Assembly (NCBI GenBank): GCA_008632985.1
Contig: QPGO01000145.1
Coordinates: forward strand, 124,001 to 188,000
DNA: 64,000 bases
Direction: 5' to 3'
Source: Psammoneis japonica
Lineage: Eukaryota
The position numbers were made by a program, and so were the translations under genes. This document shows, piece by piece, positions 300 to 63,200 of the stretch (position 1 is the first letter of the stretch; the number at the start of each line of letters is the position of its first letter). Under the pieces are notes generated by a model. The model was given only the letters and a program-made list of their open reading frames with translations. It had not been told where the DNA came from and did no database searches.

Positions 300-2400
300 G
301 CAACCACTGATGCTGGGCTTGTGTCAAGCCTTCGCAGTGCCACCAGGACGGGGGCGGGACGCCTTTTGGAACCTTTACAACCATTTCTCCTTGGGCCCAA
401 CAACCCAGGTGACATAGCCACAGTGGTTAAGACACGTTCGACTTTACTCTCTCATCATGACAAAGTGCAAGTTGAGGCAAAACAACATGTTGTCAATGAA
501 GCGTCTCTCAAGGAGCATGACTGTGGATCTGGAGACAGGCTTCATCAGGACTCAGACAATGGCCTTGGCCTTGCTGCACAATGACTTCTTGGCCTGCATC
601 ATCTTGTTCTCAAGGATTTCATTGAGCAATCCAAGCCACAGGGCAGCACTGCACAAGTGCAAAAGATTGCCATGGCAAACAAGCAAGCATGTGCAAGATT
701 GTTCACATGCTGATCAGGTCAAGAACAAATGCTGCTTTCCACCAAAAGAGCACAACAGGATCTGACAGAAATGGTCATGCAAGAACCCATGCCCATGTGT
801 GAAGGATGCAAGAACACCTCTGCAACAACAAGTTGGTGCAATGACTTCAGCACAGTGTTTTCCTGGGTCAAATTGAGAGACAATGGGACACTTGTGTGCC
901 CAGGTCTTTGGCATGACAAGTGGGTGGGCCAAAGCTCTCTCTGACTTGAAAGAGGCTTGCGCCCAGCAGAAGTGGCTGAGTGCACTGACACACCCCACTG
1001 TCAATGATCAGTCTGCTTTTCATCAATGGTGGATGGTGGGTTCCCTGCAAAGCTGCTGCATGCAGTGAAACACTTGTGGTCACAAGCACACACACACACA
1101 CAGCAAAAGTGCAGGACATGGGTCCTGAAGTCACACAAAGAGTTTGTCAAGAGATCAATGAGGCCAACTGCAATTGCTTGTTGCCAGGTGTCATTGACAA
1201 GGAGATTCAAGCTGTCAGAAAGGGCACTCAAAATGGCCAATGATGACACCAACTTGGCAGAACAAATCAATTGCCACCACCTGACACTTGATGGCTCCTC
1301 CAGTGCCAACATGTGCAAGGGTTGCATCAAGAGACAGCACACAGGTTGCACCCATGACAAGCAACAGCACTCAATGAACTGGAAGCCAAGATGGTTGACA
1401 TTGAAAATGCTTGCACCATGGCCCGGAGCAGCAACAGAATCTTTGCAACAAAACCCCAGCTCCAGAATTTGGCTCAGATGATGGGAAGAAAAGGCCATTT
1501 TTGCGTGCACCCTCTGTGGCTGGAAAAGTGCAAGTGAGTCTTTCAGAAACCATCTGGCTTCCGGCACACATCACTTGGGGTGGAAATGTGTCCAGCTGGC
1601 CATCACATGCAGCCAAAGAGGAGAAAATGTGACTCCACAAATGGGCTCAAGCACTGCACAATTTCTTTGCTGTGCATTGATGATGACATGTCACACCAAC
1701 AGTGCACCACAATGCCACGAAGACATCAAAAGAGCTGGGTTGCTGTTTCAAGAATCTGAAGCCCAGCTTCATCATGTGCGACAGAGACATGGAGCAAGAT
1801 GGTCCAGTGGGGGGTGCCAGCTCCACACAACATCAGTGACAGCAAGCAAATCATGTCATTTTTCCTTTGCCAAGTGGCTTTGTGAGGGGGGTTGTTGGGG
1901 CTCCTTCTTTGTTGTGGCTGAGTGCAGCTGCCAGGAGGCAAACTGACCAAAGTCTGTCCATTGCCCCCCAAGCAGGCTTGGGGAGGCCAAAGAGTTTGCC
2001 ACGCAGCTGATCAACAAAGTGTGCTGGGAACTTTGCCAGTGAAAAACTGAGTTGAATCCTGGTGACCACTGAGTGGAGTCCTCATCACAGGAATGTGTGG
2101 ACTTTCTGCGGGCAAGATTTCACAGCTTTCAACAAATTGCTCGATGGTTTTTTCTGCACAAAGTGCCGCAAAAATTCAACAAAGGCCAATTTTTGAGCCC
2201 TCACCCTGTTGAAATGCACACAAGTTTGTGGCAGCAAAAAAGAGCTGTTGGAAAAAAAAAAACAAGGCTCGGCTCGGTCGGTTTTTTGCTGGCAGCAAAA
2301 ATTGTGAGCTCAGAGGCATGGCTGCCGATGACAACTCACTGATTGTCTCATCTTTTCATGCACAGCAGCACAGCGTTGGGATGTCTCTGGTTCTGTTCTG
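300..2400. repeat. Unclassified TpA-depleted repeat/TE relic
   Basis: Almost no TA dinucleotides and many Tyr-free overlapping ORFs, the same composition as the identified TEs. No domain recognised. Confidence 0.4.
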
Positions 2401-4560
2401 CTCTGATGGATGGCAAACACAGGCAATTTCTGCAGTGTGAAAGTGTTGCCGGACCGCTGCGCTCACCGCCCAACACAAAGTCTGTCGTGCATTGTGTGTT
2501 CACTGGATTCCAAAATGGCGCACTCTTGCTGCCAGCTTGCTGTCAGCTGTCGGCGCTTTGTCTGCCCTGAGCCCCGCCTTTCCTGCCTTGTCCTTGCCCA
2601 CGCATTCAAACCCATTGACAACGAGCTGTGTCGTTGACTTCCCCCCGCTCCAAATCTGCTGCCTCATCACATGTCAATGATGAGGGAATCAAACTTAACA
2701 CCCAAGACCAAAATCCTCACATCCACATCCAGCACTTCTCCCATTGACCGCCTCCCACCCACCAATGCTCAGGCTCTCTCCAAAGCCCTTTCCTTTCTCA
2801 ATCCCACCAATGACCCACGCGTCAAACCTGAACTTGCTTCTGGTGTCTGCTTCCTCAGCCAACCCATTGGCTCTTCACCTTTGCCATCAATTTCCTTCAT
2901 GACAAAGCCACTTCCTTTGCCACAGACCTTGACGCCTCACTGACCGCCTCGCCGACAAGCAAACACAAAGTGCTCTTTTCTCCGCAAATGCTCCATCCCC
3001 TCCACCACCCATCTCCTTGCAGCTGATGCATGCCACAACCTTGTGCACTCCAACAATTTTTCAACCCCCCTCCCAATGGGCGTCTCCTTTTGTTGACAAG
3101 ATCACAGGCCACTCCTTGTGCTTCCTTGCTTGCCTCACTCAACATGCTGCCCCTTTCCCTTCTGCATCAAAACTCATTGCCAACCTGCCCATTTCATTGG
3201 GTGGTGTGGATGCCAAGACATCTTTGCTGTCAACATCCCAGCTCTCATCACCTCCCTCACAAGATCAATGCATTGCACCAAACACGGCATCCCACTCACC
3301 AGTGGCGATGTCTTTCATCTTCCTTCAAGCCATTCTGCTGCTCTCGGCTCATGGTCCAATCCACGCTCCACCCTCTCCCCTCTTCCTTTGCCCCATCTTC
3401 TGCCATTGCACCCCCCCCCCCCCCCTCCTCTGGTTTGACTCTTCTTTGTTCACCTCCCGACCACACTGTTGAACACCACAACCTGCAAGGTCCAGCACAA
3501 CGCCTTCACCTGTGTCGCCACCAAACCAACGCTCTTCCTCAGACATTGCGATCCTTCCACACAACCAGCCCTGCCGTCCCTTCTATCTCTGCTGACAAGC
3601 CTGTGTCTTCACTCTCTCTCCCGAACTCCCGCTGCCAACCGACTCACATCACACCTGTTCACGCTTCTTCTTCTTTGCAAACTGCGCCTTCGGACAATTT
3701 CTCCTGCCTTCCTCCAACTTGACTGCCCATGTGGCCACACCCACCCAGACCCTTTTGGAGACCATGCCTTTGCATGCTCCAAAATGCACAAAAGCCCTCT
3801 GTCAAACCACATCCACGACACCATTCACACTGTCATCGAAACACCAGCCCCCCTCTTTGCGGCCTGTGCCTCTTCCGCCAACAAGTCTGCCTTGACCCAG
3901 CCAGTCTCTCAGCTGACCACCCCCTCAAATGCCCTGCCAATGTTGGCACTGAACTCACTCCTGGCTCCACACCACCCGACACTCCATCCACCCACCATTT
4001 CGTGGCCATCAACGTTGCCGCACCACCAGTGCCCCTGCCTCCTGCACCTGGTTTGCCTGCCCCTGAAAAACCATCAACAAGGCTCACCTCAGCAGCACAT
4101 GGGACAAGCCACTCGGTCACTCCACACCATCTGCCCCCACCTCCGATGTCATCAATGCTGTCAACCAAGCTGGGCTCTTCCTCCTCCCTTTTGCATTCAA
4201 CCACCTTGGTGGAATCGAGTGTCGTCATTTTCACATCTTCTTCTTCCGCACCCCTCTGCCTCAACATCCACCTCCATCCCACCCCTTCCTCCCAAACCAC
4301 CCTGGACAAGCCCACCCACCCTCTCCAACTCTCAAGCATCCTTCTCTGCCTTCACCAACTCACTGGCTGCTTGCCCCTTCCGACCTCCTCGTCCACTCCA
4401 ACGCGGCCTGGAAATGACTTTCTCCTGACCGCTTCGGCTCCTCTTGTTACACCGCAACACCTCCTCAACTTTGGGCCTCTCACATTCTTGGCCTTAACTT
4501 TGGCTTTGCTCTCTCCCACCATCTCTCCACATGTCAAGATCAACTCCTCCACAATCCCAC
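2400..4560 (+). mobile_element. Degenerate CRE-like (restriction-like endonuclease) non-LTR retrotransposon, 3' part
   Basis: RT remnants: CPLSPAFSCLVLA-like across a frameshift (~2560-2600), HVND at 2670-2681 (=YVDD after TA->CA and CG->CA), GVCFLSQPIGS, LPISLGG. C-terminal CPCG...DPFGDHAFAC...NHIHD zinc motif followed by CPANV...AINV (RPAD/IDV-type endonuclease motifs). Confidence 0.7.
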
Positions 4561-4829
4561 TCTTAGGGCCCTTCCGTCACCCTTGCGAATCCTGCGAAAC
4601 CTGCGAACTTCGAGGCCGGACATTTTGATAAAAACGTCAAGGGACATTTGGTGACTTTTCTCGCATTTCCCTCGCAGAACTTCGCCCATGATTGTTGCAA
4701 ACTTGCCAGTCGATCTCCGTAGAACCTGCGTGCGAATTTGTGGCATGTTCAATCCGACTGCATGCCTCCTGAGAGGTGCATCACGAGACGCGCTCTAGAA
4801 AACAATCAACACAAAAAATCGATCGCACC

Positions 4830-6683
4830 ATGTCGTCTTCAAGCGACGGCACTGACAACTCAAATGGCACCAACCAAGTGCCACCAATGCAAGACAGCAA
4901 CAATGGTGGCATGCCTCATGACAAGGACATGGGGCTTGTGCCAACCCCTCACCTCTTTGATCAAAAGCTGTTCATGTCCTTGCATGTTTGTGGCGGCGAA
5001 GAACTGTCTGCAGAAGAAAAGACGCTTGCGGATGCGAGCATCATGTCAATGAAAGTGGCCGGTCTCAGATCTCTTTGCCACAAGTACAAGCATGTTCGTG
5101 ATGACAATCCCACACCAAAAAACGTTTCCACCACAGGCAATTCTGGCCACTTGAAGAAGCGTCTGATGATGTGGTTCTGCATCTTCCGGCAGGAAGAAGC
5201 ACGCATCGACAAGCGCCCCTTCAGCGCTTCCAAGAACTGGAGCCAGGCAGAAGATTCTCGCATCATTGAGATTTTAAGTGACCCAACCTTCCAGAAACCC
5301 CTCCAGCACCTTCACCAAAAGGCTCCACGTGTTGTGCTTGACGAAGGCGACCCGCTCCTCATGTCTGTGTGCCGACAATTCATTGCTGTTTTGTGCGACA
5401 ATTTTGACAAGTACAAACCAACCCATCGGTTTCCAGATGACCCACATCTCAAAGCCTTCAATCCCAATGACAAGACCATTTCTTCCCGTGCTCCACATGT
5501 CTTGAAGTTGAGGGTTGGACAGCTTCGCAGCAGGTTGACAGCAGTGCACAAGGTCGGCACGAAGAGCGGCTCAGATCCGGAAGGTTTTGAGAATGCTCTT
5601 GATCTGACTGACCCACTGGACCAATCCATTCTCTGTTGGTGGAAGGTGGTTGACCAAAATGGTGATTCATCTGTTCTCAACAAGTTTGTGCGCCTCCTCC
5701 CAGGTGGCTGTGGTGTTGACTCGTCGGATCCCAGCACCATTCAACGCAGCCTGGACGCCGCCAACTCCATCTTGCGCAGCAGGGGTGACAGCTCCTCCAG
5801 CAAGTCACAGAGCATGTCTGAAAGAATCTTGAATGTAGCCAGTGAGATGAAAAGCGACATGATGAATGAGGAAAACAAGGAGAACATGTTTTTCTTGAAG
5901 CAGAACAGAGACCGTGCACAGAACAAGTCGGAGCGACTGGCCGACGAGATTCGGGCCATGAGGTGTGGAAAGGCTGGTGACTTGAGCAAGCATGAGAGAA
6001 AGATCAAGCAGCACAAAAGAGCCCGGAGCGAGTACGAAGAGCTTGAGAAAGAGGTGGTGAAAGCGCGAAAAGTTGAGTTGGACAGCGACATTGAGCACGA
6101 CGATGCTTCTTTTCTTCTGTCTGTGCCATCCAGCAGCGGCGACGATGAGGTGAGTGCCTTGTGTGTTCTTTGTGCTGTTTGTGATGTCAATGATTTGCGC
6201 CAACTCAACCTTTGCTGTGAACACAAGAGCCGCCAAAACTGCGTCAGGAACAAATCCAGGGAAGTCTCTGCTGGGAACTGCTCCGATGGCCACGACTGAG
6301 GGAATGAGTCTACAGAGCTGGAAGAAGATGTCCAGTCTGACAGCAAGAGCAATTCACGCAATGAACCAGTGCACTGCGGCTGCACAGAATGCAACAAGCG
6401 GAATGAGCCAGTTGGAACGAAAGACGAGGCGGAACACCACGATTTCAACTGCTCGGATTTGGGTTCCTGGTCTTCAAACATGTGCTCCAACTTTGAACAT
6501 TGTGGGCATCACTTGCATCATGTTGGTTGCAAAGCTTGCCTTGACGAAGATGACCCTGCTTCCCTGACTTGTGGGCACCCTGATTGCACTGGCGGGTCGG
6601 AAGTTCATGCATTTGCATCGTGTGCCAATGTGAACAACAACGCTGCGGATGGTGATTTTCTGTCTTCAGACAGCAGTGAGTAG
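4830..6683 (+). pseudogene. Harbinger accessory (Myb/SANT-like DNA-binding) protein with Cys-rich C-terminus, probably disrupted
   Basis: Long ORF 4776-6299 with WSQAEDSRIIEIL (Myb-like W...ED motif) and a coiled-coil region. A Cys/His-rich ORF 6369-6683 follows. It lies convergent to the transposase inside the TIRs. Confidence 0.6.
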
Positions 6684-6699
6684 AATGCAATGCATTCAA

Positions 6700-8225
6700 C
6701 ATTGTTTGCAGAATCACAGCTTTCTTGTGGTGCAACTTTTACTTCTGTGACCCTCTGGCCAGCAGATCCGAATCGGCATTTAGACATCGCAACGATCCCG
6801 CAGGTGCGCGCCAAAATCTCAGTGCATCTTGCTCAAGTGGGCGTTGCTTTAGAAGAAATGGGAATTGTGGCACAGTCAATGGCAACAACATCATCCATAG
6901 ATTGAGAGCTTTCTGATGATGTCAGTTTTATTTCCACACCCTGAGCAGATCCGAATCGGCACTCAGATGTCCTGCCGACCCCGGCTGCGCGCCAAAGTCC
7001 CAGTGCATTTTGCTCAAGCAGGTGTTGCTTTGTAAGAAATTGGAATTGTGGCACAATCAAAGGCAAAAACATCATCTGCAGATCAAGAGCTTTCTGATGA
7101 TGTTAGATCTGCTTCCATGCCCTGAGCAGATCCGAGTCTGCATTCAGACATCCTGCCGACCGGCACTTGTGCACCCGAGTCACATTGCGTTTTGCTTGAG
7201 CAGGTGTTGCTTTAGAAGAAATTGGAATTATGACACAATCTGTGACAATGACATCATCTAAAGAGCAAGAGCTTTCTAATGATGATGCTTTTATTTGGAT
7301 GCCTCTAGCAGAACCGAATCGGCAAAAATCCCAGTGCGTTTTGCTCAAGTGGGCGTTGCTTTGTGAGAAATTGGAGTTGTGGCACAATCAATGGCGACAA
7401 CATCATCCATAGATTGAGAGCTTTCTAATGATGTTAATTTTATTTCCATGCCCTGAGCAGATCCGAATCGGCATTCAGATGTCCTGCCGACCCCGGTTGC
7501 GCGCCAAAATCCCGTCAAAACGCCTCTCGCGCAATGCGTTTGCTTGACCAGCCGTTGCTTTAGAAGAACTCGGAATTGTGGGACAATCAATGGCAACTGC
7601 ATTATCTACAGAACAAGAACGAGAGCTTTCCAATGGTGCCACTTTCATTTCCATACCCCAAGCGGATCCGAATGATCAACAATCGGCAACCCGTAGAGTT
7701 GCGCGCCAAAATCCTGCTGCACTTGCTCAACTGGCAGTTACTTTAGAAGAACTCGGATTTATGGGACAATCAACGGTAACCACATTGTCTGTGGAACAAG
7801 AACAAGAGCTTTCCAACAGTGCCACTTTCATTTCCATGCCCCAAGCAGATCCGAATCATCAACAATCGGCATTCTGACAGCCAAACAACCCCTGTTTTTG
7901 GCGCCAAAATCCAATTGCGTTTTGCTTGACTAGCTGTTGCTTTAGAAGCACTTGAGCTTGGGCAATGAAAAATGGCAATAAAATCATCTACAGGACGAGA
8001 GCTTTCCAATGGCATTGCTTTCATTTCCACACCACAAGCAAATCCGAATCTGTGTTCAATTGTCCAAGTGACCCGCAGTTGCGCGCCAAAACCCTGCTCT
8101 ACGTGCTCAACTAGCCGTTGCTTTAGAAGAACTGGGAATTGTGGGACAATCAATGGCAATTGCATCATCTGCAGAACAAGAGCCATCCAATGGTTCTGCT
8201 GTTATTTCCATGCACACATCAGATC
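6700..8225. repeat. Tandem array of about 8 diverged ~150-200 bp units inside the Harbinger
   Basis: GTTGCTTTAGAAGAA-like core recurs at ~6843, 7024, 7206, 7354, 7554, 7737, 7935 and 8117, with GCAGATCCGAATC and GAGCTTTC motifs in each unit. Confidence 0.9.
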
Positions 8226-8231
8226 GGTTCT

Positions 8232-9635
8232 CTAGTTGTGATTCGATGCCATCGATGCCGACGCCGCATTTCTGCCGCCAATGCGAGGTGGGCAAACAAT
8301 GTTGGCAGTTCTCAATGAATCTGTGATCTGTTCCTGAATTGGACACTGCCCATGATGCACCCATGGGATGGCCCTGTCTTCAAGCCAGCATTGGTCCATG
8401 GGACACAGGTTGTGGTCGCACCCCATCGGCTCGTCTGAGGAAAGGAATGGCTCACCCTGTCGATGCTGACCCGGTCCGGTGTTGACTGAAGGAACGCACA
8501 ATTCATCACCATCAACACCAAGGTCTTTCAGGAAATTGTGCAGACGAAAAATAGATTGAATTGCCACCGGACACCTGCGCAATGGAAAAAGCAAAGGATG
8601 CCAAAAAATCCCAAACTTCTGGCAGACATTGCCCCACATTCGCTCAACGCAATTGTGGCGGCCTTTGTTCAGACAACAGTTGAAGGCATCCTTGTGTGGC
8701 TCACGCTCTGCAAGCCCAGTGCCTGGCCATGGACCAACCCGATTTGCACCACAGCCATGAGCCTCATCCAAAGAGATGCAGTGATGCCTCTTGGTGCCTT
8801 GATGCTTGACTCGTGTTTCATTCTCCCATCTTGTGGCCATGGTGCACAATTCCCAAGCTGTCCTGTCATGAGCATTTCCTGTGGCATGGACGTCCAACAC
8901 TCGACACTTTAAGACAGCATCTGCAATCGCTTGAACACTGATGGCTGGAAAACCCTTCCGATTGACGTGTGCCATTGGATTCTTGCATTCGTCGCTGCCT
9001 GGCATGCGAATTCTCACAGCACATCCGTCTCCTGCTCCCACATGACCAATGTGCAATTCCGGAAGGTTGTTCTTGTTTTGTAAAAATTGATTTGCCAAGT
9101 GTCGCAGCTCTGGCTCTGTTGTGGGAAAATGCACAGTGCCAACACCGGCTTCAACAATGGCTTTGAAAAAATCAAACAACGTGTCCTCCACACTCATGTG
9201 ACCCAAGCCAAAAGCAAAAATGAGGCCACCCAAAGAACAACCTCCAGACCCCATGCAGCCGAGATGCACCTTTTCATTGACCGCAAGTGGCCTCCGGTCG
9301 CAATCCTGTCAGCCGGCTGTGTTGGCATCCGACAACTTCGGCTTCAAACACGGGTGCAATTTGTTTCGGAGGCACTCCATGGCGTGTGGAGGCATTCTGA
9401 AAACAGTTGCAAATTCTCCGGTGAGCAAGGAGGCACAGCGTGAATCGAGCAAGTCCCGAAGCATGCATCTCGCATGAGAACGCTCGTGTGATGATTCTCG
9501 TCGTTCAATGGCGTCAGCGTGCAGACACAATGTGGCAACGAGTTCTGCCAACAGAGCCATCCTCTTTTTCTTTTTCCTTGGTCTCATTGCCACCAATGCA
9601 TTGAGATCTGGTGCATCTTGATCAAACGAAGACAT
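8232..9635 (-). pseudogene. Harbinger/HARBI1-type DDE transposase, frameshifted and hypermutated
   Basis: ORFs 9309-9635 (FATVFRMPPHAMECL) and 8232-9269 (VGAGDGCAVRIRMP, NRKGFPAISVQAIAD, TGNAHD, SLDEAH, HNCVERMWG, LHNFL). No Tyr in 345 aa. Confidence 0.85.
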
Positions 9636-11009
9636 TGCGAGTTCGCATGAGCGTGATCGATTTGCTTTTTCTGCATCAATGGCACTGATGCTGGTGCTTC
9701 ATCCCAGCGCGGTGGAAGCAAACCCCGCGAGATCAGTGACAGCATCAGAGACGTCAACATTCAGAAAGTGACGTCATTTCAGACATTTTTGAAAAATGTC
9801 ATTTCGCAGGTTTTGCAGGGGTTCGCAAGGGCAATGGAACGGGTCTTGCAGCATGGCTGGAATTGATTTTTAGAAATTTGGAGTAGATTTCCACGCAATT
9901 GGCACAACACGTCACCAAGTTGAAGTTCATTTTATTGGCGGGAAAACAAAAAGCACGAGAATTGTCACGTGCCCGGTCGCTCAACGATGATGCTCACAGC
10001 TTCTTGAAAATCCATGGCTTTTTGCACTGCGACCTGTGCCCACCTTACCAACCCACCTGTGAAGCTCCCTGAGGGCCGAAGTGCAAAAAACCCATCATGT
10101 CTGATGTCCGAAAATCATTCGTGTCAAAACACATGCATCGACTGTTCTTGGATTCTCGTGTTCAGAATCAATGGATGCCAGCAGACCTGTTGGCAGAGTG
10201 CTGTAATACAAAATTCAACATCAATGATGAGAGAGTCGAAAATGGGGGGTGGACAATTGAAGAAGCTGTGTGGCAGCATCAACGGGGTTTCGAGTTTGAC
10301 GGAAGAGAACAACACTGTTGCTGACGGGGTGAATTTGTACGAAACGGAATGCCAACATGGCAGTCAAGCCCAACCCCTTTCCCGGCTTTATAAATTACTT
10401 GAAGCAACTCAAGGACGAAAATAAAGGCCTTTCATCCCGGTTCTGTACCGACCTGCAAGACTTTTTAAGGATTGCAAACTCCCGAACCTCCGTTTGGACA
10501 CGAGAATCTCAATCACTTTGTCGGATCCAAGTCTTTGGCAAAAAACATTGACGTTTGTCATGATCTTGCAAAGCCAAGTCGTTCTTTGCCACTGAGCATC
10601 AGTGAGGGCATCGTGGGAGCACTTTTAATGGGTGCAATTTAGGATGAGACGATTTGAGGATTGCAGCTTTCTGTCAATCAATTGACATCATGCTTTTGAA
10701 TCGCCAATGACGATGGCTCGTTGTTGTGCCACTAGAGGCTCATCTGCACTGCCGTCTGCTCGTTTTAAGAATGAATTGGCTGCTTGCGCCTTCTCTGCCA
10801 ATGGATGTGTGTTTGGTTTGAGTGGCAGGTAGAGAGGAACGGGTGCAAGTTTCGTCTCTGAATGCACACCCCAAACAACACTGCCAAACTGATCGAAGGA
10901 GTGCAAGCACTGCCATCATAGCTCTAGAATAGTTTGTTTACATTCAAGAACGAACAGGTCTAGGCCCTGCCTGCCCACGTGGCATCGGTAGAAGAGAGCA
11001 AAGCCAAGG

Positions 11010-11576
11010 GTGGCATCAAGCGACGACGGCACCAGAGGCACCAGCAGCTGGCAACAATTGTTGGACAATTCAAAATGCAACAGTGCTTCATTGCACACTC
11101 TTCCTGTGGAGATACTTGCCTCTTGTGTAGATGTCTCGAAAGGAACTACGCTACTTCAGCATCACGCACATCACATGGGAGCACGCGTGGTCTTGACTCC
11201 AAAATGTCATTCTGAATTGGCATGGGAATGCACAGAATGTCTTTGGGCTTGTGCAAAAGGTGAGCATCGAAACCTTTTCCTGTCACAGAAAATAGGAAAA
11301 GAGAATTTCAAGAAATCGGTTAGGCACTGCTTGTTGGATGAGGTGTTGTCAAGCGCACACGTAAGTTTGCAAAGAGAGCACCACGGCACACTCAGGCTTG
11401 CCATGCAACTGACAATGGATGTGTTGAGGACACAAAGAGGGTCCATGAATTTGGACCCACTCCCAACTGGGAGGTCTGTATTATTTGGACCCGTTGCACT
11501 CGACAAGACGCACCGGTGTGCTGTTGCTTTTGCTTTTAAGTTTGCATCAACAGCGTCGCCGAAGGCGATGTTGTAA
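11010..11576 (+). CDS. Hypothetical protein or gene relic
   Basis: 188-aa ORF; LHTLPVEIL weakly resembles an F-box start. It has no Tyr, so it may be a mutated relic. Confidence 0.25.
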   Translation: MASSDDGTRGTSSWQQLLDNSKCNSASLHTLPVEILASCVDVSKGTTLLQHHAHHMGARVVLTPKCHSELAWECTECLWACAKGEHRNLFLSQKIGKENFKKSVRHCLLDEVLSSAHVSLQREHHGTLRLAMQLTMDVLRTQRGSMNLDPLPTGRSVLFGPVALDKTHRCAVAFAFKFASTASPKAML

Positions 11577-13500: not shown

Positions 13501-13588
13501 GTACATTAATTACCAGCGCAATCCTTATGGATTAAAGATGCAAAGTGTCTCTTACAACTTATCAAAATTCTAACTATTAGGCATTATC

Positions 13589-37480: not shown

Positions 37481-37481
<1 letters not shown>

Positions 37482-37511: not shown

Positions 37512-37513
<2 letters not shown>

Positions 37514-54300: not shown

Positions 54301-56177
54301 GAAATCCGACGGCTCTCTGGAGAAACTCAAGGCTCGATGCTGCGCGCGCGGCGACGTGCAACGCAAATCAGCCGATGACGACAATTGGTCTCCAAATGCA
54401 TCCTCTCGTGCCATCAAGCTCTTTCTAGCCTTTGCTGCGAAGGCCAAACGACACGTCAAGAATGGTGACTTTGTCGGTGCTTACCTTCAGGCCCCAGCTC
54501 AAGGCCGTCTCTTTGTCCGCTTCAACCCAATTCTGAAGCAACACTTTCCCGAGCATGCCGAACATTTTGGTGTGCCCCTCCGCCTCAAGAAGGGCATGTG
54601 CAGGACCATCCGCAGCAGTCTTTGGTGGTCCACCGAGCTCTCCGAATTTTGCTTGCCAAGGATGCACCAATTCCAAGGCAGACCCCACCTTCTTCGCCAA
54701 GCACTTCCCTGACGGCTCACATGTCAAGCTCATCTTCTGCACGGACGACATCATCTGTTTTGGGTCTCACGATGGAGTCGAGAAGGATTTTGAGAACCTC
54801 GTACGATCCAGGCACAACATTGCATTCAACGGTGACGTCACCTGGTTCTTGCAAATGTGCATTCACCGATGCGCCGATGGCTCCTTCTCTCTCGACCAAC
54901 ATCGATGCATGCGCAATCTCCTCAAGCGGTTTCTCACTCCCAACTCACCTTGGGGCAGCCCCAGCTTTCAGGATGCTCCAGCTCTCGTTGATTGTGTGCA
55001 CTCCAAGTTGAATCAACCCAAGGATGCCGTCAAATCCAAGCAAATTGCAAACAAGTGTCCCGGACTCCATTTTCGCTCCGCTGTCTGCTCCATCCTCTAT
55101 CTCGCTTGCAACACTCGCGCTGACATGCTTTGGATCACCTGCAAACTTGCAAAGGCTTGCACCAACCCCGGCATGAAAGATTTCGATGCTCTCATTCATC
55201 TTTTTGGCCACCTCCACAAACATCAAGACCTTGCCATCAAATTTTGTTCCGGTCCCACCATGAGCCCTGTTCACGCGATTTGCAAAGCTCACAATGTCAG
55301 TCATTCTGAATTTGTGGTCTTCACTGATGCCAGCTGGCAAGACTGTCCGGACACCGCTAAGTCAACTGTTGGATTTATGGTCCACTTCAATGGGGCAACA
55401 GTGGAAGCCAATTCCACTGTCCCAACTCCTGTGGCAATGTCCGCCGCCAAATCCAAGTGGATGGGTGCCTGCACTGGTGCTGTGGCTGTCACTCACCTGC
55501 GCATGTTGGCACACGACTTCACCTTCCTTGGCACCCGCCACTGCTCCATTGACTCCCAACGCCTCTCCACTGCTCCCACCATCCTCATGTTGGACAACCA
55601 AGCAGCAGCCCAAATGGCCCAAAATGACCAACAGACTTGACGAACCTGACACATCGAGTGACGTTTCCAATGTGTCCATGAAGGCCAGTGCCTTGGTCAT
55701 CACTTGCTTGTTTGGGTCCCTGCTGAAAGTCAATTGGCGGACTGCCTCACCAAAACTCAATGTGCAGACAAAATTTGGGTCATGGTCGACCGTGTCCCAT
55801 GGCGTCTCCCTGCACACATGTTGTCATGAGCTTCTTGTCATCTTCCCTCATTCGGTTCAAGGGGGGTGACAGGGATCCCACATGCCCTTTTTATGTTGGA
55901 ACCTCATGACCAAAGACAACACATCTTCAGTCCAGTTTGTGATTGAAATTTGCCGATCTTTCGGAGTGCTTCATCAACCTGTCAGAATCTGTCTGATCTG
56001 GACATCATGTCAATTCTGAGACTGGCTCAGAATCTCTCACACAACTTCTGGACAACGCATTGTCGCAAGGTGCTGCTCCTGGATTTAGCTTCTAGCTTGC
56101 TCTCTCCTGTTTGTGCACAGACTTGATCACCCAAGACACTCTCAGGCGAGTGCCCAGTTCTTTCCCATCTTCTGTCA
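48306..56177 (+). mobile_element. Full-length Ty1/Copia LTR retrotransposon (CoDi-like), hypermutated
   Basis: LTRs 48306-48613 and 55867-56177 (TGACAG...CTGTCA); TSD CAGGG; PPT AAGGGGGG. Gag knuckle CFHCKKKGHLHPDC, protease WFVDSGASSH, integrase IRADSA..EQNGVAE, RT ARCCARGD / DFVGAYLQ / IFCTDD, RNase H FTDASW, in PR-INT-RT-RH order. Confidence 0.95.
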
Positions 56178-56650
56178 CAGGGGCACACGTGTGGACACTT
56201 TGAACTTGAGAGGAAGTTCGCATTGATGTGACAGGTGCCAGGATTGGAACCACATGAACAACTCTTTCGAGCTGTTGCAACAAATCCAATGCTGACTCTT
56301 CCTGAATTGCCAGCACCGAAACGGTGAAAGAAGAAATCACTCTCAAAAGGCGGGTCGTTGAAACATTGTTCGTGCAGCCCCCAAAAACAATTCGAAAGCA
56401 TGTAAAAATTTGTGGCACTTTTGCAAGCATCAGAGCAAGAAGAAGCACCAAGTCTTGCACAATGAAACTAAAGAAATTGCTTCACTTTCTTTCCTTTGCC
56501 GTCTTCTTCCCCGTCTCTCACTTCGTCCTTGACCCGAGCAATGCTGGCAGCATCCACCACAACCATGCCCACTGTGTGTTCATGGTCAGCTCCCAAGAAT
56601 TCCTGACTCTTGATGGCTGTGGCAATGGCACTTGCCGGGTTCGGATGGTG
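56178..56650 (-). pseudogene. Inverted duplicate of the Sec63 3' end and downstream intergenic DNA
   Basis: The minus strand reads AIKSQEFLGADHEHTVGMVVVDAASIARVKDEVRDGEE versus the intact AIKSQEFLGADQEHTVDAVVVDAASITRVEDEVSDGEE. It resumes for ~23 bp at 61694-61716 after the Gypsy. Confidence 0.9.
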
Positions 56651-59600
56651 TGCAGCATGCCTCGCTGCTGGACAACACGGCGAGACCGTGCATGAGCCTC
56701 TTGTGCGTGGCAACGCAGTGTTGTCAACACACACCTGGGAAGCACGACCACAGGAGGGTGTGGCTCCAGGTCTTGGGCAATTCCAGAAGGATGCTAAGAG
56801 AGCATCCGTGTGAAGCACACCAGCCCGTCGTCTGGCCCACGATGGCAGCGTGATTCCACACGATGACATCACTCGTGCACAGCGCGTGATGGCTTGATTC
56901 GCACGATCCACAATGCGAAGGCACAATCGATTTGATGCGATCCAAATGCGAACAAATGGGGATTTGGCAAGATTCCCCATTTGCACGATCCCACTTTCTC
57001 CACTCCAAACTGGCTCACAATTTTCACAACGACAAAGTCGCAACACATCTTCTTTTTCAGCGCCTGGCACATGCATGGGGCACAGCGACATTGCTCCCGC
57101 ATGTTGTGCGAGGTGACGAAATCTGCAGAAACGAAACTGCGAAATGTTGGTGGGACCGACAAATCTTAAAACGACCATGAAGAAGCGGATTGAGCCACCG
57201 ATTCCGTTCGCACGGCCGGAGAAGAAAGAGCTGCAGCAAGGCGAGTGCCAGACGTTCAAGCTGCGCAACAACCCTGCCAATCCGGATGGTCCAACGCACG
57301 AGATGGGCATTCCGCACCTTTCTGCGGCTGCATGCGAGACACTCCCAATCTTTCTGCACAACGTGGATCGCGTGCATGAAGGACAAAACATCACGGCTGG
57401 GCCAGCGAAATTTGCCCTCATGCGTGACCCACTGCAGGGCGATGCTCTGACGTCATTTGACAGTGCCGCTGACAAGCAGGCATCTCAAACCAACGCCACG
57501 TGCACAGCATGCGTCGCGAAGCTAAAGGAAAGCATCTTCCCACACAGGGCGGTGCCATTGCAGAAGCATTGTCTGAGGCGCTTCACGCGCAAGCCCGCAG
57601 AGGTTTCCACTCGTGACTGCATCGCGAGGGCTGTTGAAATTAACGGCTGTGTCTCTCAGTTTCCACCCATGACGGAGGATGGAGAAGCACCGGCACCATC
57701 ACCCAATGACGAACCATGCGACATGTTCGAGCACAGTGTGCCAAACGCATGGCAGAAGTTCATGACGCCACAGAATTTTGACCCGTTGGCGCACACTGTC
57801 GCCGAATTTGCACAGTTCTGCGAGCGCATCGAGCAGGTCGAGCTTGCTGAAGGTAACCTGGACCAACACACTAAGGTCCCACGCAAGCGGGGACGTAGAA
57901 CGGACAATCCTGAGTCGTTGATCACGACCCAACGGAACACCCAGAAGTCGTGCATGCTGCACGGGACCAACTGTGGACATCATGCGGAGGATTGCCGTCA
58001 GCTCAAGCACCACGCAAAACGTGTCAAGACTGGACATTCCAATGACGGAGGGCAGCAAACCTGATGCAAAACCTCGGAATGAGGAAGACATTGACACTCT
58101 CATCGGATCGAAGGTCGAGGAGTTCTTTGCCAACGCTCAGAAAAAACGCAAGGCACGCGAGGAGGAGCTCAATCACTTCCGCGACCTCAACTTAAGTGAT
58201 TCCGAAGATTCGGACACCTGAGAAGGGGGGCCGACACGACACAGGCACTTTTAACACATCAGATGAATGTATAAATGAACAACTGAATTACCATCGTACA
58301 CGTGTTGTAGGCCAATCCCGCAAACGAGTTAAAAAGACTCATCTTACTCCAATCTTGTTTATAGCTATGAATGCTAAACATGGCAAGGGCAAGACTCAAA
58401 CCATTAAGGCACTACTAGATAGTGGCGCCAGCAGCACTCTACTCGACAGTCGATACTGTAAACGTCTGCGAAGCCATTCAACGGCTGAGACAAACTGGAC
58501 TACGGTAGCAGGCTCGTTCAGTACGTCTAACGACTGTACCGTTAAATTTCGGTTACCAGAATTATCCGAAACGGAAACCGACCGGATTTCGCGTATTTTA
58601 GACGCTAAGTACGCGCCGGCCTGCCTCGAGGACATAACGCGAGGGGCAATAGAATTTTCTATTGTTCAACAAAACGACCTTTTGGCACTATAGAAACGCC
58701 ATGAGTCCTTATTTGATGGGACATTAGGAGAATGGAAGGGAGAACCCTACCATATCCAACTCAAGGAGGGTGTAGAACCATACCACGCTCGTCCGTATAA
58801 AGTACCTCGTGCGTACGAAGCTACGCTACGTAAAGAAGTAGAACGCCTAGTGCGCATTGGTGTTCTCAAACGCGTTAACCGATCCCAATGGGCAGCTCCA
58901 TCATTTATCACACCGAAGAAAGATTTAACGGTGCGCTTTATTAATGATTTGAGAGAGCTGAATAAACGGATCAAGCGATTGCCTTGTCCGATTCCTGATG
59001 TCCAAGACATGCTGCTTGAGCTCGAAGGCTTTATGTGGGCTGCATCGCTGGATTTAAATGCAGGCTGTCATCACATCCGATTGGATGCTGACAGTGAGAA
59101 GCTTTGCACGCTCATCTTCCCGTGGGGCAAGCATGAGATGCAGGCATTGCCCATGGGATTGTGCAACTCGCCAGACATTTTCCAAGAACGCATGTCAGGC
59201 TCATTTGAAGATCCATGGTTCGTTCGAACGCACTTAGATGACCTTCTCGTCGTGACGAAAGGCACCCATGAAGATCACCTCAACAAACTTGAAGAAGCTT
59301 TGTTGAGGGTCCAGAAAGCAGGACTAAAAGTTGACGCAACTAAATCTCACTTCTGTCAAACCCAACCAGAGTGCTTGGGCTGTCTGGTCAACAGAGACGG
59401 AACGCGACCAACACCTGACAAAGTGGACGCCATTGAGCGAGTCGCGACCCCAGCCAACAAACGCGACCTGCGCTCATTTGTTGGCATGGCGAATTGCTGC
59501 CGTGATGCGTGGATCAGACATTCTGAAGTCTTGGCTTCGCCAACACGACTCGCAAGCAAGACTGTCAAGTGGGAGTGGACGTCCATTGAAGACGAGGCGC

Positions 59601-61693
59601 TCGAAACCGTTGAACGGGTGACATCGGATGATGTTTTGTCGTCACATCCTGATTTTGACAAACCCTTTGAGACACATGCCGATGCCTCTAAATGTCAATT
59701 GGGAGCAGTTGCACCCCAAAATGATGAACCTGTCACCTTTTGCAGCAGAAAGCTCAACAGCGCGCAATTAAATTGTGCAACAACGGAGAGAGAATTGCTC
59801 GTCATTGTGGAAATGTTGAAAGAATTTCGAATGATTCTCCTTGGTCATCGCATGATTGTGTGTGCTGATCATAAAAATCTTGCATGCAATGCGGCCCCGA
59901 ATTACGCTGTGTTGAGGGCACCCACAACCCAGTCGCTGACGCTCTTGGTCGCCTTCGACTGGCACCCAGCTTGCCTTCCGAGGCCAATCCGGATGTAAAC
60001 GACACACCATCGAGTCATCCTTTGCATGAAGCTTTTAATGCAGACGCGCAAGATGAGATGTCTCTGCCCATTAGCTTCAAGCGCATTCAAAAAGCACAAC
60101 AAAAGGACAAGCGCCTACTCTCACGAGCTAAGGACTCGTCCGACTACTCCATTCGCGCGTGTCGTGGGGGAGGGTCATCACGACAGTTAATCTGTCATAA
60201 GGACAAAATCGCAGTACCACAGTCATTGCAGGTTCCGCTAACTGAATGGTGCCACGAGACACTGTGTCATCCAGGTGAGACACGTACGGAAATATCTATT
60301 GCCCAGCACTTCTATTGGCCTAGTATGAGGTCTACGGTGCATTCTACGTGCGTTAAGTGCGATCGATGCCAGAAGACAAAACGCCGAACGCAGCGTTATG
60401 GGAAGCTACCAGAAAAGGTCGCAGAGATAATTCCATGGGAGACTCTATGCATAGATATGATGGGGCCATATAAAATTCAAAGACGCGGAAAGGACACTTT
60501 GCAATTATGGGCAGTCACAATGATTGACCCAGCAACCGGGTGGTTCGAGATTAAAGAAGTGTCTACGAAACGCGCAGACGTCGTAGCAAACGTCGTGGAA
60601 CAAACGTGGCTATGCAGACATCCGTGGCCAACCCAGGTGGGTTTATGACCGTGGGACAGAATTTATGGCAGAATTTAGCCAGATGATTAAAAATGACTAT
60701 GGGATTTTGAAGAAACCCCTAAGTAAACGGAATCCACAGGCGAATGCCATAGTGGAACGTGTACACCAGACACTTGGTAACATGGTACGTTCCTTTTCAG
60801 TACAGAATATGGAACTGGACGAAGATGACCCATGGAGTGGCATCCTCTCCGCAGTAGCCTTCGCTATTAGAGCTACGGTACATACGACCACGCGTGCAAG
60901 TCCCATGCAATTGGTCTTCGGACGCGATGCGGTTTTTATCTATTGCCTATCGTGCTAAGTGGAAGTACATGGAAACCAGAAAGCAGAAGCTTATCCACTT
61001 TTAAACAACCAGCGTGAAAATCAGAAATGCAAGAAGTGTCAATATACCGTAGGGCAATTGGTACTTATCAAACAGGAACAATCCTCTAAATACGGTTCTG
61101 ACAGCTATGCAGGACCCGCCAGAGTTGTCTGTGTATATGACAACGGCACGTTGCGTGTCCAGAACGGAGCGCTGATAGATACGTACAATCTACGGCAGAT
61201 TGTACCCTATCACCAGTAAGACATCCTGTCACTTTTAACGGCCCTGATCATGGGGGAGTGTGCAGTATGCCTCGCTACTGGACAACACGGCGAGACCGTG
61301 CATAAGCCTCTTGTACGTGGCAACGTAGTATTGTTAACACGTACCTGGGAAGCACGACCACAGGAGGGCGTGGCTCCAGGTCTTAGGCAATTCCAGAAGG
61401 ATTTCAAGAGAGCATCCGTGTGAAGCACACTAGCCCGTCGTCTGGCCCACGATGGTAGCGTGATTCCACACGATGACATCACTCGTGCATGGCGCGTGAT
61501 GGCTTGATTCGCACGATCCACAATGCGAACGCACGATCGATTTGATGCGATCCAAATGCGAACGAGTGGGGATTTGGCAAGATTCCCCATTCGCACGATC
61601 CCACTTTCTCTGCTCTAAACTAGCTCACAATTTTCACAACGACAAAGTCGCAACACATCTTCTTTTTCAGCGCCTGGTGCATGCATGGGGGCA
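56651..61693 (+). mobile_element. Ty3/Gypsy LTR retrotransposon, partly hypermutated, with internal deletions
   Basis: LTRs 56651-57082 and 61261-61693 (TG...CA); TSD GGTG; PPT GGGGGAG. Gag 57177-58220 (CMLHGTNCGHHAEDC), protease LLDSGAS, RT WAAPSF..PKK / DLRELNK / LPMGL, RNase H DAS..LGAV, integrase H..LCHPG..CDRC / CIDMMGP / NPQANAIVERVH. Confidence 0.95.
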
Positions 61694-61716
61694 GGTGCTC
61701 AAAACTGCACATTGAG

Positions 61717-63200
61717 ACAACCTTCTTCTTGGCATGACCCCATGTGCTCATGAGCTGTGGCTTGCATTTGTTGTTTCCTGCATGCATTTGGCAAGAAGCT
61801 CCATGTGGCACCCTGGGGCCTCCTTTGTGTGCTTTTGGCATGACTTGATCCTTTTGTGCAGGTGCAGCACTGCAGTGAGATTTTCACAAGAACTTGACAG
61901 CAGTCTTTTGATCAACAAAGAGTCTGTGCTGCCTCACAAGACTGTTGTCACAGCTGTCCCCACCAACTGCTTTTCGGCACATGTGGCTTTTGTTGTCACA
62001 CCACCAGTGCACACCACATGCAAATGTGGGAGGGCACTCATTGTCCTTGAGTGCCTTGGCAAGTTTGGCTTTGCGGCGCTGTTGACTTTTTTTCTCTTGC
62101 TTGAGCATTTGCAAAACACAAGCGCAAATCACACGTTTTGCCTGTGCGCTGCCTTTGTCCTTGCTGCCAGTCCAGTGATGAGGAAGGGCCAGTAGATTCT
62201 CTTGGGCATTTCTTGCTGTTTTCATGGTCTCCCTCTTGTTTGAAGGTGCAGGAGCAAAAACAATGGCAGCAGCTGGGTTCTGCCAAAAGAAAGAGTTGAA
62301 ATTGGGTCAGCTGATGAGTTGCACCACATGAAACTCATGTTGTCATTTTGACCACAATGAGAGCAATCAGAAAACAAGCAGTTTGAAGCAAGGTTTGCAT
62401 GTGACAGGATTGGCCCTCCACAAGCAGCAACAATGTTGTCAACTTGCAACTCAGTTCAACTTGTGGTCAAGAATCTCCTCTCAGCATCATCCAAAGTGAG
62501 CGACAGTCATGTGTTGCAATTGCAGAGCTTGCGCCACATCAAGGTTAATTGGGCTGTGAGAACTTGTCCCTGCATGTGTCCAGCACCTGCTCTGTGTGGC
62601 AGCTTGCACTCTCTGACATGCTTGCAAACCCCCTTGGCTGTGTGTGAGTGGAGTTGCAGAAGGAGCGCCCATCTGTGCAAGGTTTCTAGCTGCACCTTTT
62701 TTCTTCTGCTGTGTTCTCACTGTCAGTTGCTGCCAGCACCAGCCTGACCAAGTCTGTTCCCTCTGTCTGTTTGGTGGGCCATGCTCTTCAATCAGGCTGA
62801 TGCTGGTGGTGACAACAGATGAGTGGCCCAGTGGAGAAAGTTCATAGAGTCATCAGACAGATGGGAAAAGTGGCTGAGTTCTCCTTTGCCAATCCCACAA
62901 ATGACTGGGGGGAGAGTGACTGCTGGGCTTGTGGGACATGAAGCTGACTCTGAAGTTGCCAAACTCTGAAGTCTTTGACTGCTTTCAAAAACATCCAAGT
63001 GTGCTCTTGTCACATCTGAATCTTGGTGCAGAGGGGAGCCATTCTCCTTTTTTTGTGCACTTGCCAGAGAGCATTGCACTTCATGCTGGCTGTTCAAGTC
63101 CAAAGGCTGCTGCTCCTTCTTCTTCATTGTGGCAAAACAAGAAGTGTCACTCACAGTTTTTCCTTGTCTGTGCAACACCGCAAGTGAGACCACATGCCCC
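61717..63200. repeat. Unclassified TpA-depleted repeat/TE relic
   Basis: Near-absence of TA up to a sharp boundary at ~63.2 kb. No domain recognised. Confidence 0.45.

Follow-up and report, generated by a model that had tools for sequence, protein, structure and literature searches.

Analysis of a 64,000-nucleotide stretch of the diatom Psammoneis japonica (the whole stretch is hereinafter the window) showed that TpA-specific A:T>G:C transitions strike the DNA of mobile elements and stranded fragments of host genes, and that they do so on the integrated copy. About 90% or more of the TA dinucleotides have been converted to TG or CA in kilobase-scale, sharp-edged tracts, whereas host genes lying within a few hundred bases are spared. 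With modest confidence, we consider the best explanation to be an in-place, TpA-specific hypermutation of transposable elements (TEs) and stranded host copies by a putative adenine deaminase recruited by silencing.

TA depletion and the elements affected

Relative to the mononucleotide expectation, TA is present at an observed/expected ratio (o/e) of 0.01-0.12 across approximately 38 kb of TE blocks, as against 0.51-0.53 in the blocks of host genes. This confirms the initial annotation, which had described the TE blocks as TA-poor and rich in TG and CA next to normal host genes. When each block was compared with 200 shuffles, the TA counts of all five TE blocks fell far under the minimum of the shuffles:

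501-9850: TE block, 53 TAs vs 569 expected, o/e 0.09
17249-19566: TE block, 1 TA vs 143 expected, o/e 0.01
31541-44500: TE block, 79 TAs vs 753 expected, o/e 0.10
45500-58190: TE block, 54 TAs vs 690 expected, o/e 0.08
61622-63245: TE block, 4 TAs vs 104 expected, o/e 0.04
11501-17200: host block, TA o/e 0.53
19567-31300: host block, TA o/e 0.51

TG and CA are in excess in the TE blocks (o/e 1.4-1.9, compared with 1.13-1.30 in the two host blocks). The edges of the depletion are sharp (17248/17983/19567, 31.5 kb and 63246), with host genes within about 200 bp showing a TA o/e near 0.5. While the depletion thus stands, the coordinates given earlier need correction: 31.4-63.2 kb includes two patches without mutation, 58193-59055 (o/e 0.96) and 60036-61621 (0.86), and a partly depleted one at 44.5-45.5 kb (0.35-0.52); values are likewise intermediate (0.19-0.37) at 6.5-8.2 kb and 10-11.5 kb. 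The features of the window are:

446-9870, no strand: TA-depleted TE block; last preceding TA at 445, TAs back at 9871
8235-9308, minus strand: Harbinger-type DDE ORF within this block (Pfam DDE_Tnp_4, E 1.5e-06)
about 6.7-8.2 kb: partly depleted tandem array within the same block
17249-19566, no strand: nearly TA-free repeat insertion with sharp edges (TAs at 17248, then 17983, then 19567) and internal direct and inverted repeats, lying between Mpv17-like and LHC host genes (Pfam)
28728-31200, no strand: intact host segment, not TA-depleted (o/e 0.29-0.76 per 500 bp), comprising the 3' end of a Sec63-like gene and a 519-aa gene
31541-44500, no strand: TA-depleted TE block, CG o/e 0.54, with strong CpG depletion in 31.5-37.5 kb
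38640-39029, plus strand: mutated repeat copy whose partner at 44833-45222 retains TAs
44833-45222, plus strand: the less-mutated partner, located where depletion is partial (44.5-45.5 kb)
46708-48255, minus strand: hypermutated duplicate of host 29390-31200
48306-56177, plus strand: Copia LTR retrotransposon with TA saturated away (Pfam Pol_BBD and RVT_2; interior TA o/e 0-0.15); LTRs at 48306-48613 and 55867-56177, target duplication CAGGG on both sides (ends read directly)
56193-56650, minus strand: hypermutated duplicate of host 28728-29239, the other half of the duplicated host piece split by Copia
56648-58190, plus strand: TA-depleted tract holding the Gypsy gag region and 5' LTR (56648-57080)
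58193-59055, plus strand: Gypsy protease and start of the reverse transcriptase (Pfam), unmutated tract, 59 TAs vs 61 expected
59056-59995, plus strand: remainder of the Gypsy reverse transcriptase and RNase H, TA-depleted tract, 7 TAs vs 57 expected, o/e 0.12
60036-61621, plus strand: Gypsy integrase (Integrase_H2C2) and most of the 3' LTR (61258-61690), largely unmutated, 87 TAs vs 102 expected
61622-63245, no strand: TA- and CpG-depleted block 3' of Gypsy, CG o/e 0.14; TAs back at 63246

Among the element identities proposed at the outset, the Harbinger-type, Copia and Gypsy (protease, RVT_1, RNase H, integrase) assignments were upheld by Pfam. For the two LINEs and the MITE there was no such confirmation, the candidate ORFs scanned in those stretches giving no convincing Pfam match. 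The element read as an Ngaro gave a weak RVT_1 match only (E 0.0025), together with a lead from a language model that points to tyrosine recombinases of eukaryotes. The effect on the encoded proteins is as had been claimed, with tyrosine lost to cysteine or histidine: Tyr makes up 0.5% of 12 TE ORFs (4611 aa) as opposed to 2.7% of 9 host ORFs (3464 aa), and Cys rises from 2.6% in host to 3.8% in TE ORFs and His from 2.3% to 4.5%. The DDE transposon ORF has 0% Tyr. In an alignment of the Copia integrase with 150 homologues, all five Tyr-majority columns are occupied here by His (4) or Cys (1), while the control columns are kept for Phe (13/13) and Trp (3/3).

Direction, context and timing of the changes

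Self-BLAST recovered paralogous copies of the host segment 28728-31200, which served as the ancestral reference for its duplicates. Relative to it, the duplicate at 46708-48255 has 30 of 49 TAs changed to TG or CA and 8 kept, with 31 of 78 CpGs also changed to TG or CA; in that at 56193-56650, 14 of 18 TAs are so changed and 2 kept. Comparison of 38640-39029 with 44833-45222 (2 and 16 TAs, respectively) gave 15 changes of TA to TG/CA, one in reverse and 4 TG/CA double differences. Over the four ancestor-to-derived pairs there are 72 changes from TA to TG/CA versus 3 reversals (binomial p 4e-18), which, with the integrase columns, settles the polarity in the direction first proposed. The polarized spectrum by context, which the initial annotation had called for, shows the predicted excess at TpA: A>G occurs at 56/159 sites preceded by T (0.35), 20/376 preceded by A (0.05), 19/329 by C and 13/335 by G (0.04), i.e. 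at rates of 0.04-0.06 after any base other than T. By trinucleotide the rates are 0.45 for TAC, 0.39 for TAG, 0.34 for TAT and 0.19 for TAA. TG and CA changes are interleaved in 18, 9 and 8 runs, near the 14.9, 7.4 and 7.5 expected if strands were chosen at random, so that both strands are affected, as originally stated. Hence, the mutation class is A>G/T>C at TpA, with CpG decay and ordinary divergence superimposed.

The two LTRs of single elements are discordant at TA sites. The Copia pair, aligned over 308 bases, shows 7 adjacent CA/TG double differences, about half of the approximately 19 expected TAs, which fits independent loss of TA in each LTR on a random strand. In Gypsy, 13 sites that are TA in the 3' LTR read TG or CA in the 5' LTR, with one site in the opposite sense. 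Together with the duplicated host fragments and the DDE transposon, this discordance indicates mutation in chromosomal DNA after insertion rather than reverse-transcriptase error, bearing out the claim that chromosomal DNA is the substrate. The label "repeat-targeted", in the sense of fungal repeat-induced point mutation (RIP), fared differently: only one member of each pair is mutated (the copy but not the host original, the Gypsy 5' but not 3' LTR, and 38640-39029 but not 44833-45222), and homology-based, RIP-like targeting is therefore not supported.

TA loss is also separate from CpG decay, as had been supposed: the Copia interior has a TA o/e of 0-0.04 while its CG o/e is 0.7-0.95, and 58 changes of CG to TG/CA were counted in the four pairs. 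The TpA process is thus both distinct from CpG decay and faster. Background LTR divergence is 1.9% in Copia, though it is TA-saturated, and 0.9% in Gypsy, in which some tracts are mutated and others are not; this state would fit fast bursts. One depleted Gypsy tract lies within a single reading frame, the ORF at 58694-59995, which is open and carries both RVT_1 and RNase H.

Candidate mechanisms

As the leading account of the enzyme, footprints suggest an adenine deaminase acting on DNA, which would deaminate the adenine of 5'-TA-3', whichever strand it lies on, to hypoxanthine, with this base then being copied as G. The silencing machinery would bring it to silenced mobile DNA, where episodes of activity would saturate a tract, remove Tyr codons and disable the TE proteins. 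The best candidate would be an ADAT/TadA-type polynucleotide adenine deaminase. The natural tRNA substrate of these enzymes is A34, which follows the conserved U33. The 5'-T preference would be compatible with such an enzyme; the proposed link draws on this tRNA biology and on a suggestion made in a preprint on a chlorarachniophyte alga, discussed below. We know of no natural DNA adenine deaminase established in such a role. A thymine-directed chemistry matches the footprints equally well, given that A>G on one strand and T>C on the other amount formally to a single event.

Another account, which we regard as improbable, is the decay of an epigenetic mark: a symmetric modification of TpA in silenced DNA might mispair with G and turn TpA into CpA or TpG without a dedicated mutator, for example if thymine were oxidized to 5hmU or 5fU by a TET/JBP-type dioxygenase, in analogy to 5mC at CpG. 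TpA is palindromic like CpG, the strands are equally hit, the depletion is seen only in silenced-looking TE DNA where CpG has decayed too, and dinoflagellate 5hmU is described as marking TEs and silencing them (PMC11572971). Nevertheless, there is no increase of T>C at TpC, the equivalent of A>G at GpA, and the rate is far above that of CpG decay and near all-or-none between neighboring tracts and between the LTRs of one element, which resembles an active burst more than slow decay. To our knowledge, no such mark has been described in diatoms. Error-prone patch repair, with a Pol-eta-like polymerase filling gaps in heterochromatin and misinserting opposite T, was a candidate of the initial annotation and is now very improbable. 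Its signature is A>G at WA motifs, of which TA is one, and A>G is indeed the chief non-CpG change here. It predicts, however, that ApA be raised as well, and this is as low as CpA and GpA; moreover, some 90% saturation of one dinucleotide at a background of 1-2% is hard to achieve by misincorporation.

A-to-I hyperediting of TE transcripts by an ADAR-like enzyme, or by an ADAT acting on mRNA, followed by reverse transcription and re-insertion, is the least credible of these accounts. The 5' U/T preference does resemble that of RNA-editing enzymes, as also argued in the Discussion of bioRxiv 10.64898/2026.01.13.699255. Such a route predicts identical edits in both LTRs and in retro-elements only, but the LTRs are discordant, the Copia target duplication is intact, a DDE DNA transposon and duplicates of host gene fragments are affected, and both strands are mutated. 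Very unlikely, too, is an artefact, in which a modified T or A of TpA, read from either strand and miscalled or wrongly polished, might mimic CA/TG, or chimeric repeat assembly might produce the mosaic. The mosaic in Gypsy could be a polishing chimera. The stretch 22001-42000 was compared with contigs assembled from exact words of 31 letters in a public run (X1; possibly the same sample as the assembly). Within that stretch, X1 contigs at a word depth of 48-55 give the same TA-poor sequence over 30959-37141, differing at 12 letters in total (1-4 per piece), in support of the assembled bases behind the initial annotation. Their depth and length are not expected of noisy long reads, the platform being inferred, and single-copy duplicated host fragments are converted likewise, alongside ordinary divergence.

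Comparison with known systems

The preferred reading, a targeted hypermutation, is not without precedent, and the description "undescribed" has to be withdrawn. In the chlorarachniophyte Bigelowiella natans (Rhizaria), integrated viral DNA was reported to undergo A:T>G:C hypermutation at TpA only: of 231 new mutations seen in two viral insertions, 230 were A>G or T>C, those biased to GC all being at TpA; DDE and RT domains were enriched among TpA-depleted coding sequences, and ADAT2 was named as a candidate (Mettrop et al., bioRxiv 10.64898/2026.01.13.699255). The footprint in the window matches this hypermutation, which was measured directly in mutation-accumulation lines. Common to both are the exclusive change of TpA to TpG/CpA, its confinement to foreign DNA with sharp regional limits, and TpA-poor, CpA- and TpG-rich clusters and coding sequences with DDE and RT domains. 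The host there is a chlorarachniophyte and here a diatom. According to the preprint the rate is orders of magnitude over background and episodic, with only some lines mutating, and the giant-virus (NCLDV) insertion is mildly depleted (Rho 0.45), whereas here fixed footprints are read, and these are saturated (o/e 0.01-0.12). They occupy elements of LTR, DDE and other types as well as stranded copies of host genes, with LTR pairs proving action after insertion. The words diatom and stramenopile are absent from the preprint in a word search, and our literature searches found no report of TpA hypermutation in diatoms. This is a rare form of targeted mutagenesis, for which a single 2026 preprint, dealing with an unrelated alga, is so far the only report. 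A bolder proposal, which we advance tentatively and hold to be rather less than probable, is that diatoms and chlorarachniophytes share a defence pathway, widespread in SAR (stramenopiles, alveolates and Rhizaria), in which a natural DNA adenine deaminase would be directed to mobile or viral DNA that has newly been silenced, erasing nearly every TpA over kilobase-scale tracts in short bursts. If true, it would be the functional mirror image of fungal RIP with no duplication required, and its effector the first natural enzyme editing A in chromosomal DNA as a defence.

Fungal RIP resembles the process in its massive, context-specific, in-place transitions in mobile or duplicated DNA, with sharp borders and destruction of coding capacity. 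RIP, however, changes C to T mainly at CpA, thereby making TpA, requires duplicated sequence and mutates both copies. Here TpA is lost rather than gained and a single member of each pair is mutated, with the host original at 28728-31200 intact, unlike RIP on both counts. Hyperediting of dsRNA by ADARs and editing by ADAT2/3 (TadA family; tRNA A34 and fungal mRNAs) likewise lead to A being read as G with a preferred 5' U/T, but these enzymes act on RNA, and ADARs accept a 5' A nearly as well as U, whereas in the window the substrate is chromosomal DNA and a 5' T alone is favored. CpG decay through 5mC deamination also turns a palindromic dinucleotide into TG/CA in the same blocks, but it has another target and is slower here, Copia having lost nearly all TA and little CpG. 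Finally, in dinoflagellates, another SAR lineage, 5hmU is made by a TET/JBP homologue, mostly on TEs, and an older report cited in that work has T preferentially replaced in TA and TC; it is presented in the relevant sections as a silencing mark, with no mutational footprint reported there (PMC11572971), and TpC is unaffected in the window.

The mosaic of mutated and unmutated tracts in Gypsy may reflect gene conversion between mutated and unmutated copies instead of bursts. Word depth is very high at 38-40.7 kb, a hint that mutation of some TA-poor repeats preceded their multiplication; copies in such amplified families may have inherited their TA-poor state instead of each acquiring it anew.

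Loss of TpA from mobile DNA

In 2-kb and 500-bp windows the ratio of observed to expected TA dinucleotides (TA o/e) stands at 0.00-0.15 over most of 0.45-9.87, 17.25-19.57, 31.5-58.2, 59.06-60.0 and 61.6-63.25 kb, with TG and CA o/e raised to 1.4-2.0 in the TA-depleted stretches. Expected TA counts were computed for each block from mononucleotide composition and compared with 200 shuffles; in all five blocks the observed count lies below the minimum of the shuffles.

TA counts in the five depleted blocks of the window
501-9850: 53 observed, 569 expected
17249-19566: 1 observed, 143 expected
31541-44500: 79 observed, 753 expected
45500-58190: 54 observed, 690 expected
61622-63245: 4 observed, 104 expected

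These counts bear out the initial annotation, which had remarked on a depletion of TA and an excess of TG and CA. The block borders are abrupt: successive TAs fall at 17248, 17983 and 19567, and the usual TA spacing is seen again from 63246. In the host-gene blocks TA o/e is 0.51-0.53 and TG/CA o/e 1.13-1.30. The process acting on the mobile DNA is real, operates at the DNA level and is specific to TpA.

The public sequencing run X1 accounts for 82% of the words sampled from 27001-37000; none of the runs listed for that stretch was of RNA. Its contigs, at a word depth of 48-57, match the host part 22001-29381 with 2 other letters and cover the transposable element (TE) block 30959-37141 in five pieces with 1-4 other letters each. 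Contig depth and length suggest that the X1 reads, from a platform not on record, are accurate and that base modifications were not misread as other bases. Against the concern that raw reads might fail to support the assembled bases, the X1 contigs carry the TA-poor sequence over 30959-37141, although the run may be the assembly's own sample and so is not fully independent. In the single-copy TE part 12 differences from X1 are listed, 2 of them TA in the window and TG in the run, and 4 of them CpG versus TG/CA. In the multi-copy part at 37.8-40.9 kb, 20 of the 25 differences listed are sites at which other copies have TA (8) or CG (12) and the window has TG/CA; a further 223 differences lie outside the listing.

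Several side observations emerged from the runs. The single-copy TE part shows 12 differences over about 4.8 kb and the host part 3 over about 9.3 kb, a density several times higher in the former. At host-gene sites 24985, 25656 and 30852 both X1 and a second run, X2, read a letter other than that of the window, which may reflect allelic difference or assembly error. Over 38009-40676 the summed X1 word depth is 12,000-70,000 as against about 57 in unique DNA, a summed depth not being a copy number; very many copies seem to share the TA-poor sequence found here, and some TA-poor repeats may have multiplied after mutation or may represent a homogenised satellite. Most TE blocks are without cover in runs X2 and X3. 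The cover of X2, labelled 'DNA?' and noted over 24904-31269, is confined to stretches within 22.7-31.3 kb, largely host ORFs, at very uneven depths of about 5 to 85, in addition to one 3379-nt record from a relative of the 38.4-39.1 kb repeat (38404-39137) with 393 bases skipped; this pattern looks like that of a transcriptome rather than genomic DNA.

Direction of change and action on integrated DNA

Self-comparison of the window uncovered both duplicated host DNA and terminal repeats. The host segment 28728-31200, comprising the end of a Sec63-like gene and the gene for a 519-aa protein, has a segmental duplicate of about 2.5 kb, which was later cut by the Copia insertion into the halves 56193-56650(-) and 46708-48255(-). 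Taking the intact host gene as the ancestral state, 30 of 49 TAs have become TG/CA and 8 are kept in the half 46708-48255(-), along with conversion of 31 of 78 CpGs to TG/CA; the corresponding figures for 56193-56650(-) are 14 of 18 TAs, with 2 kept, and 13 of 26 CpGs. The LTRs of the Gypsy element (56648-57080 and 61258-61690) differ at 13 sites with TA in the 3' LTR and TG/CA in the 5' LTR, against 1 opposite case, and 15 TAs of the repeat 44833-45222 are gone from its partner 38640-39029, again against 1 opposite case. Summed over the four pairs, there are 72 changes of TA to TG/CA versus 3 reversals (p = 4e-18).

Polarity can also be read from proteins. A full HMMER scan recovered 150 homologues of the Copia protease-integrase ORF among the matches listed, although a word-indexed search at 'near' lengths returned none. 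Among the homologues listed, all five integrase columns with Tyr in at least 40% of at least 15 aligned sequences are non-Tyr in the window (His in 4, Cys in 1), and control columns are retained (13/13 Phe-majority, 3/3 Trp). The pair polarity and the replaced Tyr columns show that the TG/CA state is derived, and an ancestral TG/CA composition was rejected. In each duplicated pair only one member is mutated; consequently, the homology sensing implied in describing the process as repeat-targeted is unsupported, and a reading in terms of RIP was rejected.

The Copia retrotransposon (48306-56177, forward strand) has LTRs ending in TG...CA and a polypurine tract, and its 5-bp target duplication, CAGGG, is intact. 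By the mechanism of LTR retrotransposition both LTRs are identical at the time of insertion. Of the 308 aligned sites in its LTRs (48306-48613 and 55867-56177), 27 are mismatched today, and 14 of these mismatches form 7 adjacent CA-versus-TG double differences, the expected outcome of one ancestral TA being mutated separately in each LTR on opposite strands. These 7 discordant sites are close to half the number of TAs, roughly 19, expected in 308 bp of this composition; given 6 unexplained mismatches over the 308 sites, we estimate that chance adjacency would yield about 0.1 such pairs. Taken together, the Copia doubles, the asymmetry between the Gypsy LTRs, the mutation of host-gene copies and a Tyr-free DDE ORF show that integrated chromosomal DNA is the substrate and that the process acts after integration, as had been proposed. 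The LTR discordance, the host-gene copies and the DDE ORF rule out reverse-transcriptase error and RNA editing as the principal cause.

Gypsy is the youngest element, with 0.9% unexplained LTR divergence, and is a mosaic within intact ORFs: 56.6-58.19 and 59.06-60.0 kb are depleted (TA o/e about 0.1), and the tracts at 58.19-59.06 kb (0.96) and 60.04-61.62 kb (0.86) are unmutated. The mosaic suggests episodic saturation, tract by tract; for this one element it may also have arisen by gene conversion between copies or from a polishing chimera.

Sequence context, mechanism and precedent

Folding changes onto the A strand and counting per A site by 5' neighbour, A>G occurs at 56/159 sites after T (0.35), 20/376 after A, 19/329 after C and 13/335 after G, confirming the anticipated excess of A:T to G:C change at TpA. 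Broken down by trinucleotide, the rate is 0.45 for TAC, 0.39 for TAG, 0.34 for TAT and 0.19 for TAA. The 162 TAs surviving in depleted blocks are enriched for TAA and TAG, and 6% of them have a 3' T versus 23-29% of TAs in unmutated DNA; some may be newly created. TG and CA outcomes form 18, 9 and 8 runs as against 14.9, 7.4 and 7.5 expected at random, and therefore both strands are hit without long single-strand runs; no strand-coordinated clusters, a sign of a single-strand substrate, were found among these outcome runs. In the Copia interior TA o/e is 0-0.04 and CG o/e 0.7-0.95, and only 1.9% of LTR sites differ for other reasons; TpA loss is faster than CpG decay.

The tRNA substrate of ADAT/TadA enzymes has U33-A34. 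Given this, the strict 5'-T and a suggestion made in a preprint on another protist, our leading inference is that an ADAT/TadA-like enzyme, recruited to silenced DNA, would deaminate adenine in 5'-TA-3'. The Pol-eta-like repair put forward in the initial annotation is a poor fit, since its WA mutagenesis would raise ApA as well and ApA stays low (20/376 vs 56/159 for TpA). The chief competing explanation is that TpA bears a symmetric mark, for example oxidised thymine, and is lost as a side effect of the decay of that mark: dinoflagellate TEs do carry 5hmU, with a reported TA/TC preference (PMC11572971), but in the diatom TpC is unaffected, and tracts that are mutated almost completely or not at all look like the product of an active rather than a passive process. 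Also rejected as causes were selection against TA, APOBEC-type C>T change and GC-biased gene conversion, the last being without TpA specificity.

Aside from a single 2026 preprint on a TpA-specific A:T>G:C process in one chlorarachniophyte, fungal RIP is to our knowledge the only known eukaryotic mass point mutation that destroys integrated mobile DNA. That preprint (bioRxiv 10.64898/2026.01.13.699255), a study of mutation-accumulation lines of the chlorarachniophyte Bigelowiella natans, describes the same signature: two integrated viral regions took 231 of the 302 new point mutations in the nucleus. Of these 231, 230 were A>G or T>C, every one of these GC-biased changes lying at TpA; the rate was about 6e-7 per site per generation, and mutation was limited to some of the lines. 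The preprint further describes 324 TpA-poor coding sequences enriched in DDE and RT domains, and puts forward an ADAT2 homologue as candidate; the words 'diatom' and 'stramenopile' are absent from its text. Contrary to what was initially supposed, the process is thus not wholly undescribed, and the diatom footprint adds a further lineage, the second, to a kind of process described only very recently. A full-text literature search, with subscription journals outside its scope, returned no report of TpA-specific hypermutation in diatoms. The footprint evidence in the diatom is stronger than that in the preprint (TA loss is saturated, every tested TE class is affected, and the LTRs prove post-insertion action), whereas new mutations were measured directly in B. 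natans and the diatom provides footprints alone.

That a diatom shows this footprint at saturation, across all the TE classes looked at, means that the process is no one-strain curiosity; it may have an ancient origin and a wide distribution within the SAR group (stramenopiles, alveolates, Rhizaria). Diatoms include relatives that can be transformed and crossed and could serve in a search for the enzyme, and a natural TA-specific DNA adenine editor, if real, would be relevant to base editing. The process also raises local GC content, inflates LTR-based age estimates and biases TE annotation, since Tyr-less, stop-poor ORFs are missed by Pfam, as in the window.

Proteins of the mobile elements and host genes

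Tyr makes up 0.5% of residues in 12 TE ORFs versus 2.7% in 9 host ORFs, with Cys and His higher in the former. Among the elements named in the initial annotation, Pfam recovers three types in depleted DNA, namely Copia, Gypsy and a Harbinger-type DDE_Tnp_4 transposase ORF, which is without Tyr; the 'Ngaro' stretch has a weak RVT_1 match, with language-model features that point to eukaryotic tyrosine recombinases, and the LINEs and MITE are unconfirmed. Pfam searches with E up to 1 of the ORFs in the supposed LINE stretches and of the tyrosine-recombinase-like ORF gave no convincing match, none being near the curated cut-off. Heavily TA-mutated TE proteins seem to be missed by profile searches. 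The tyrosine-recombinase-like ORF, 45192-46400(+), resembles eukaryotic tyrosine-recombinase clusters, one from a diatom, in language-model features with a score of 0.97; with Tyr at 0.2% of its residues, the catalytic Tyr of this putative recombinase may be among those lost. Single-protein scans of metagenome_contigs found no relatives of the Copia ORF or the Gypsy RT ORF, nor did a viral_contigs scan find any relatives.

Pfam identifies the host genes as encoding zf-MYND, a zinc-type alcohol dehydrogenase (ADH), two Mpv17/PMP22 proteins, LHC, BipA, SerRS and DnaJ/Sec63. SerRS is a single 488-aa ORF whose best matches, at 72-80% identity, come from the diatoms Chaetoceros, Eucampia, Ditylum, Skeletonema and Thalassiosira; the window is accordingly diatom DNA, in agreement with the initial annotation. 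The BipA/TypA GTPase gene, 22322-24450(+), lies in three ORFs (22322-22852, 22930-23502 and 23575-24450), presumably due to introns, unlike its single-ORF neighbours. The 519-aa protein, 29561-31141(-), matches no Pfam family and contains a Cys-rich unit of about 50 aa repeated two to three times; a 153-bp tandem repeat at 30752-31053, with copies 94% alike, encodes it. Immediately outside a depleted block, positions 3-269 hold a short copy of the ADH gene 3' region that fuses 13432-13584 to 14135-14252, 550 bp apart in the gene; fewer TAs have been lost from it, 8 of 15 being kept.
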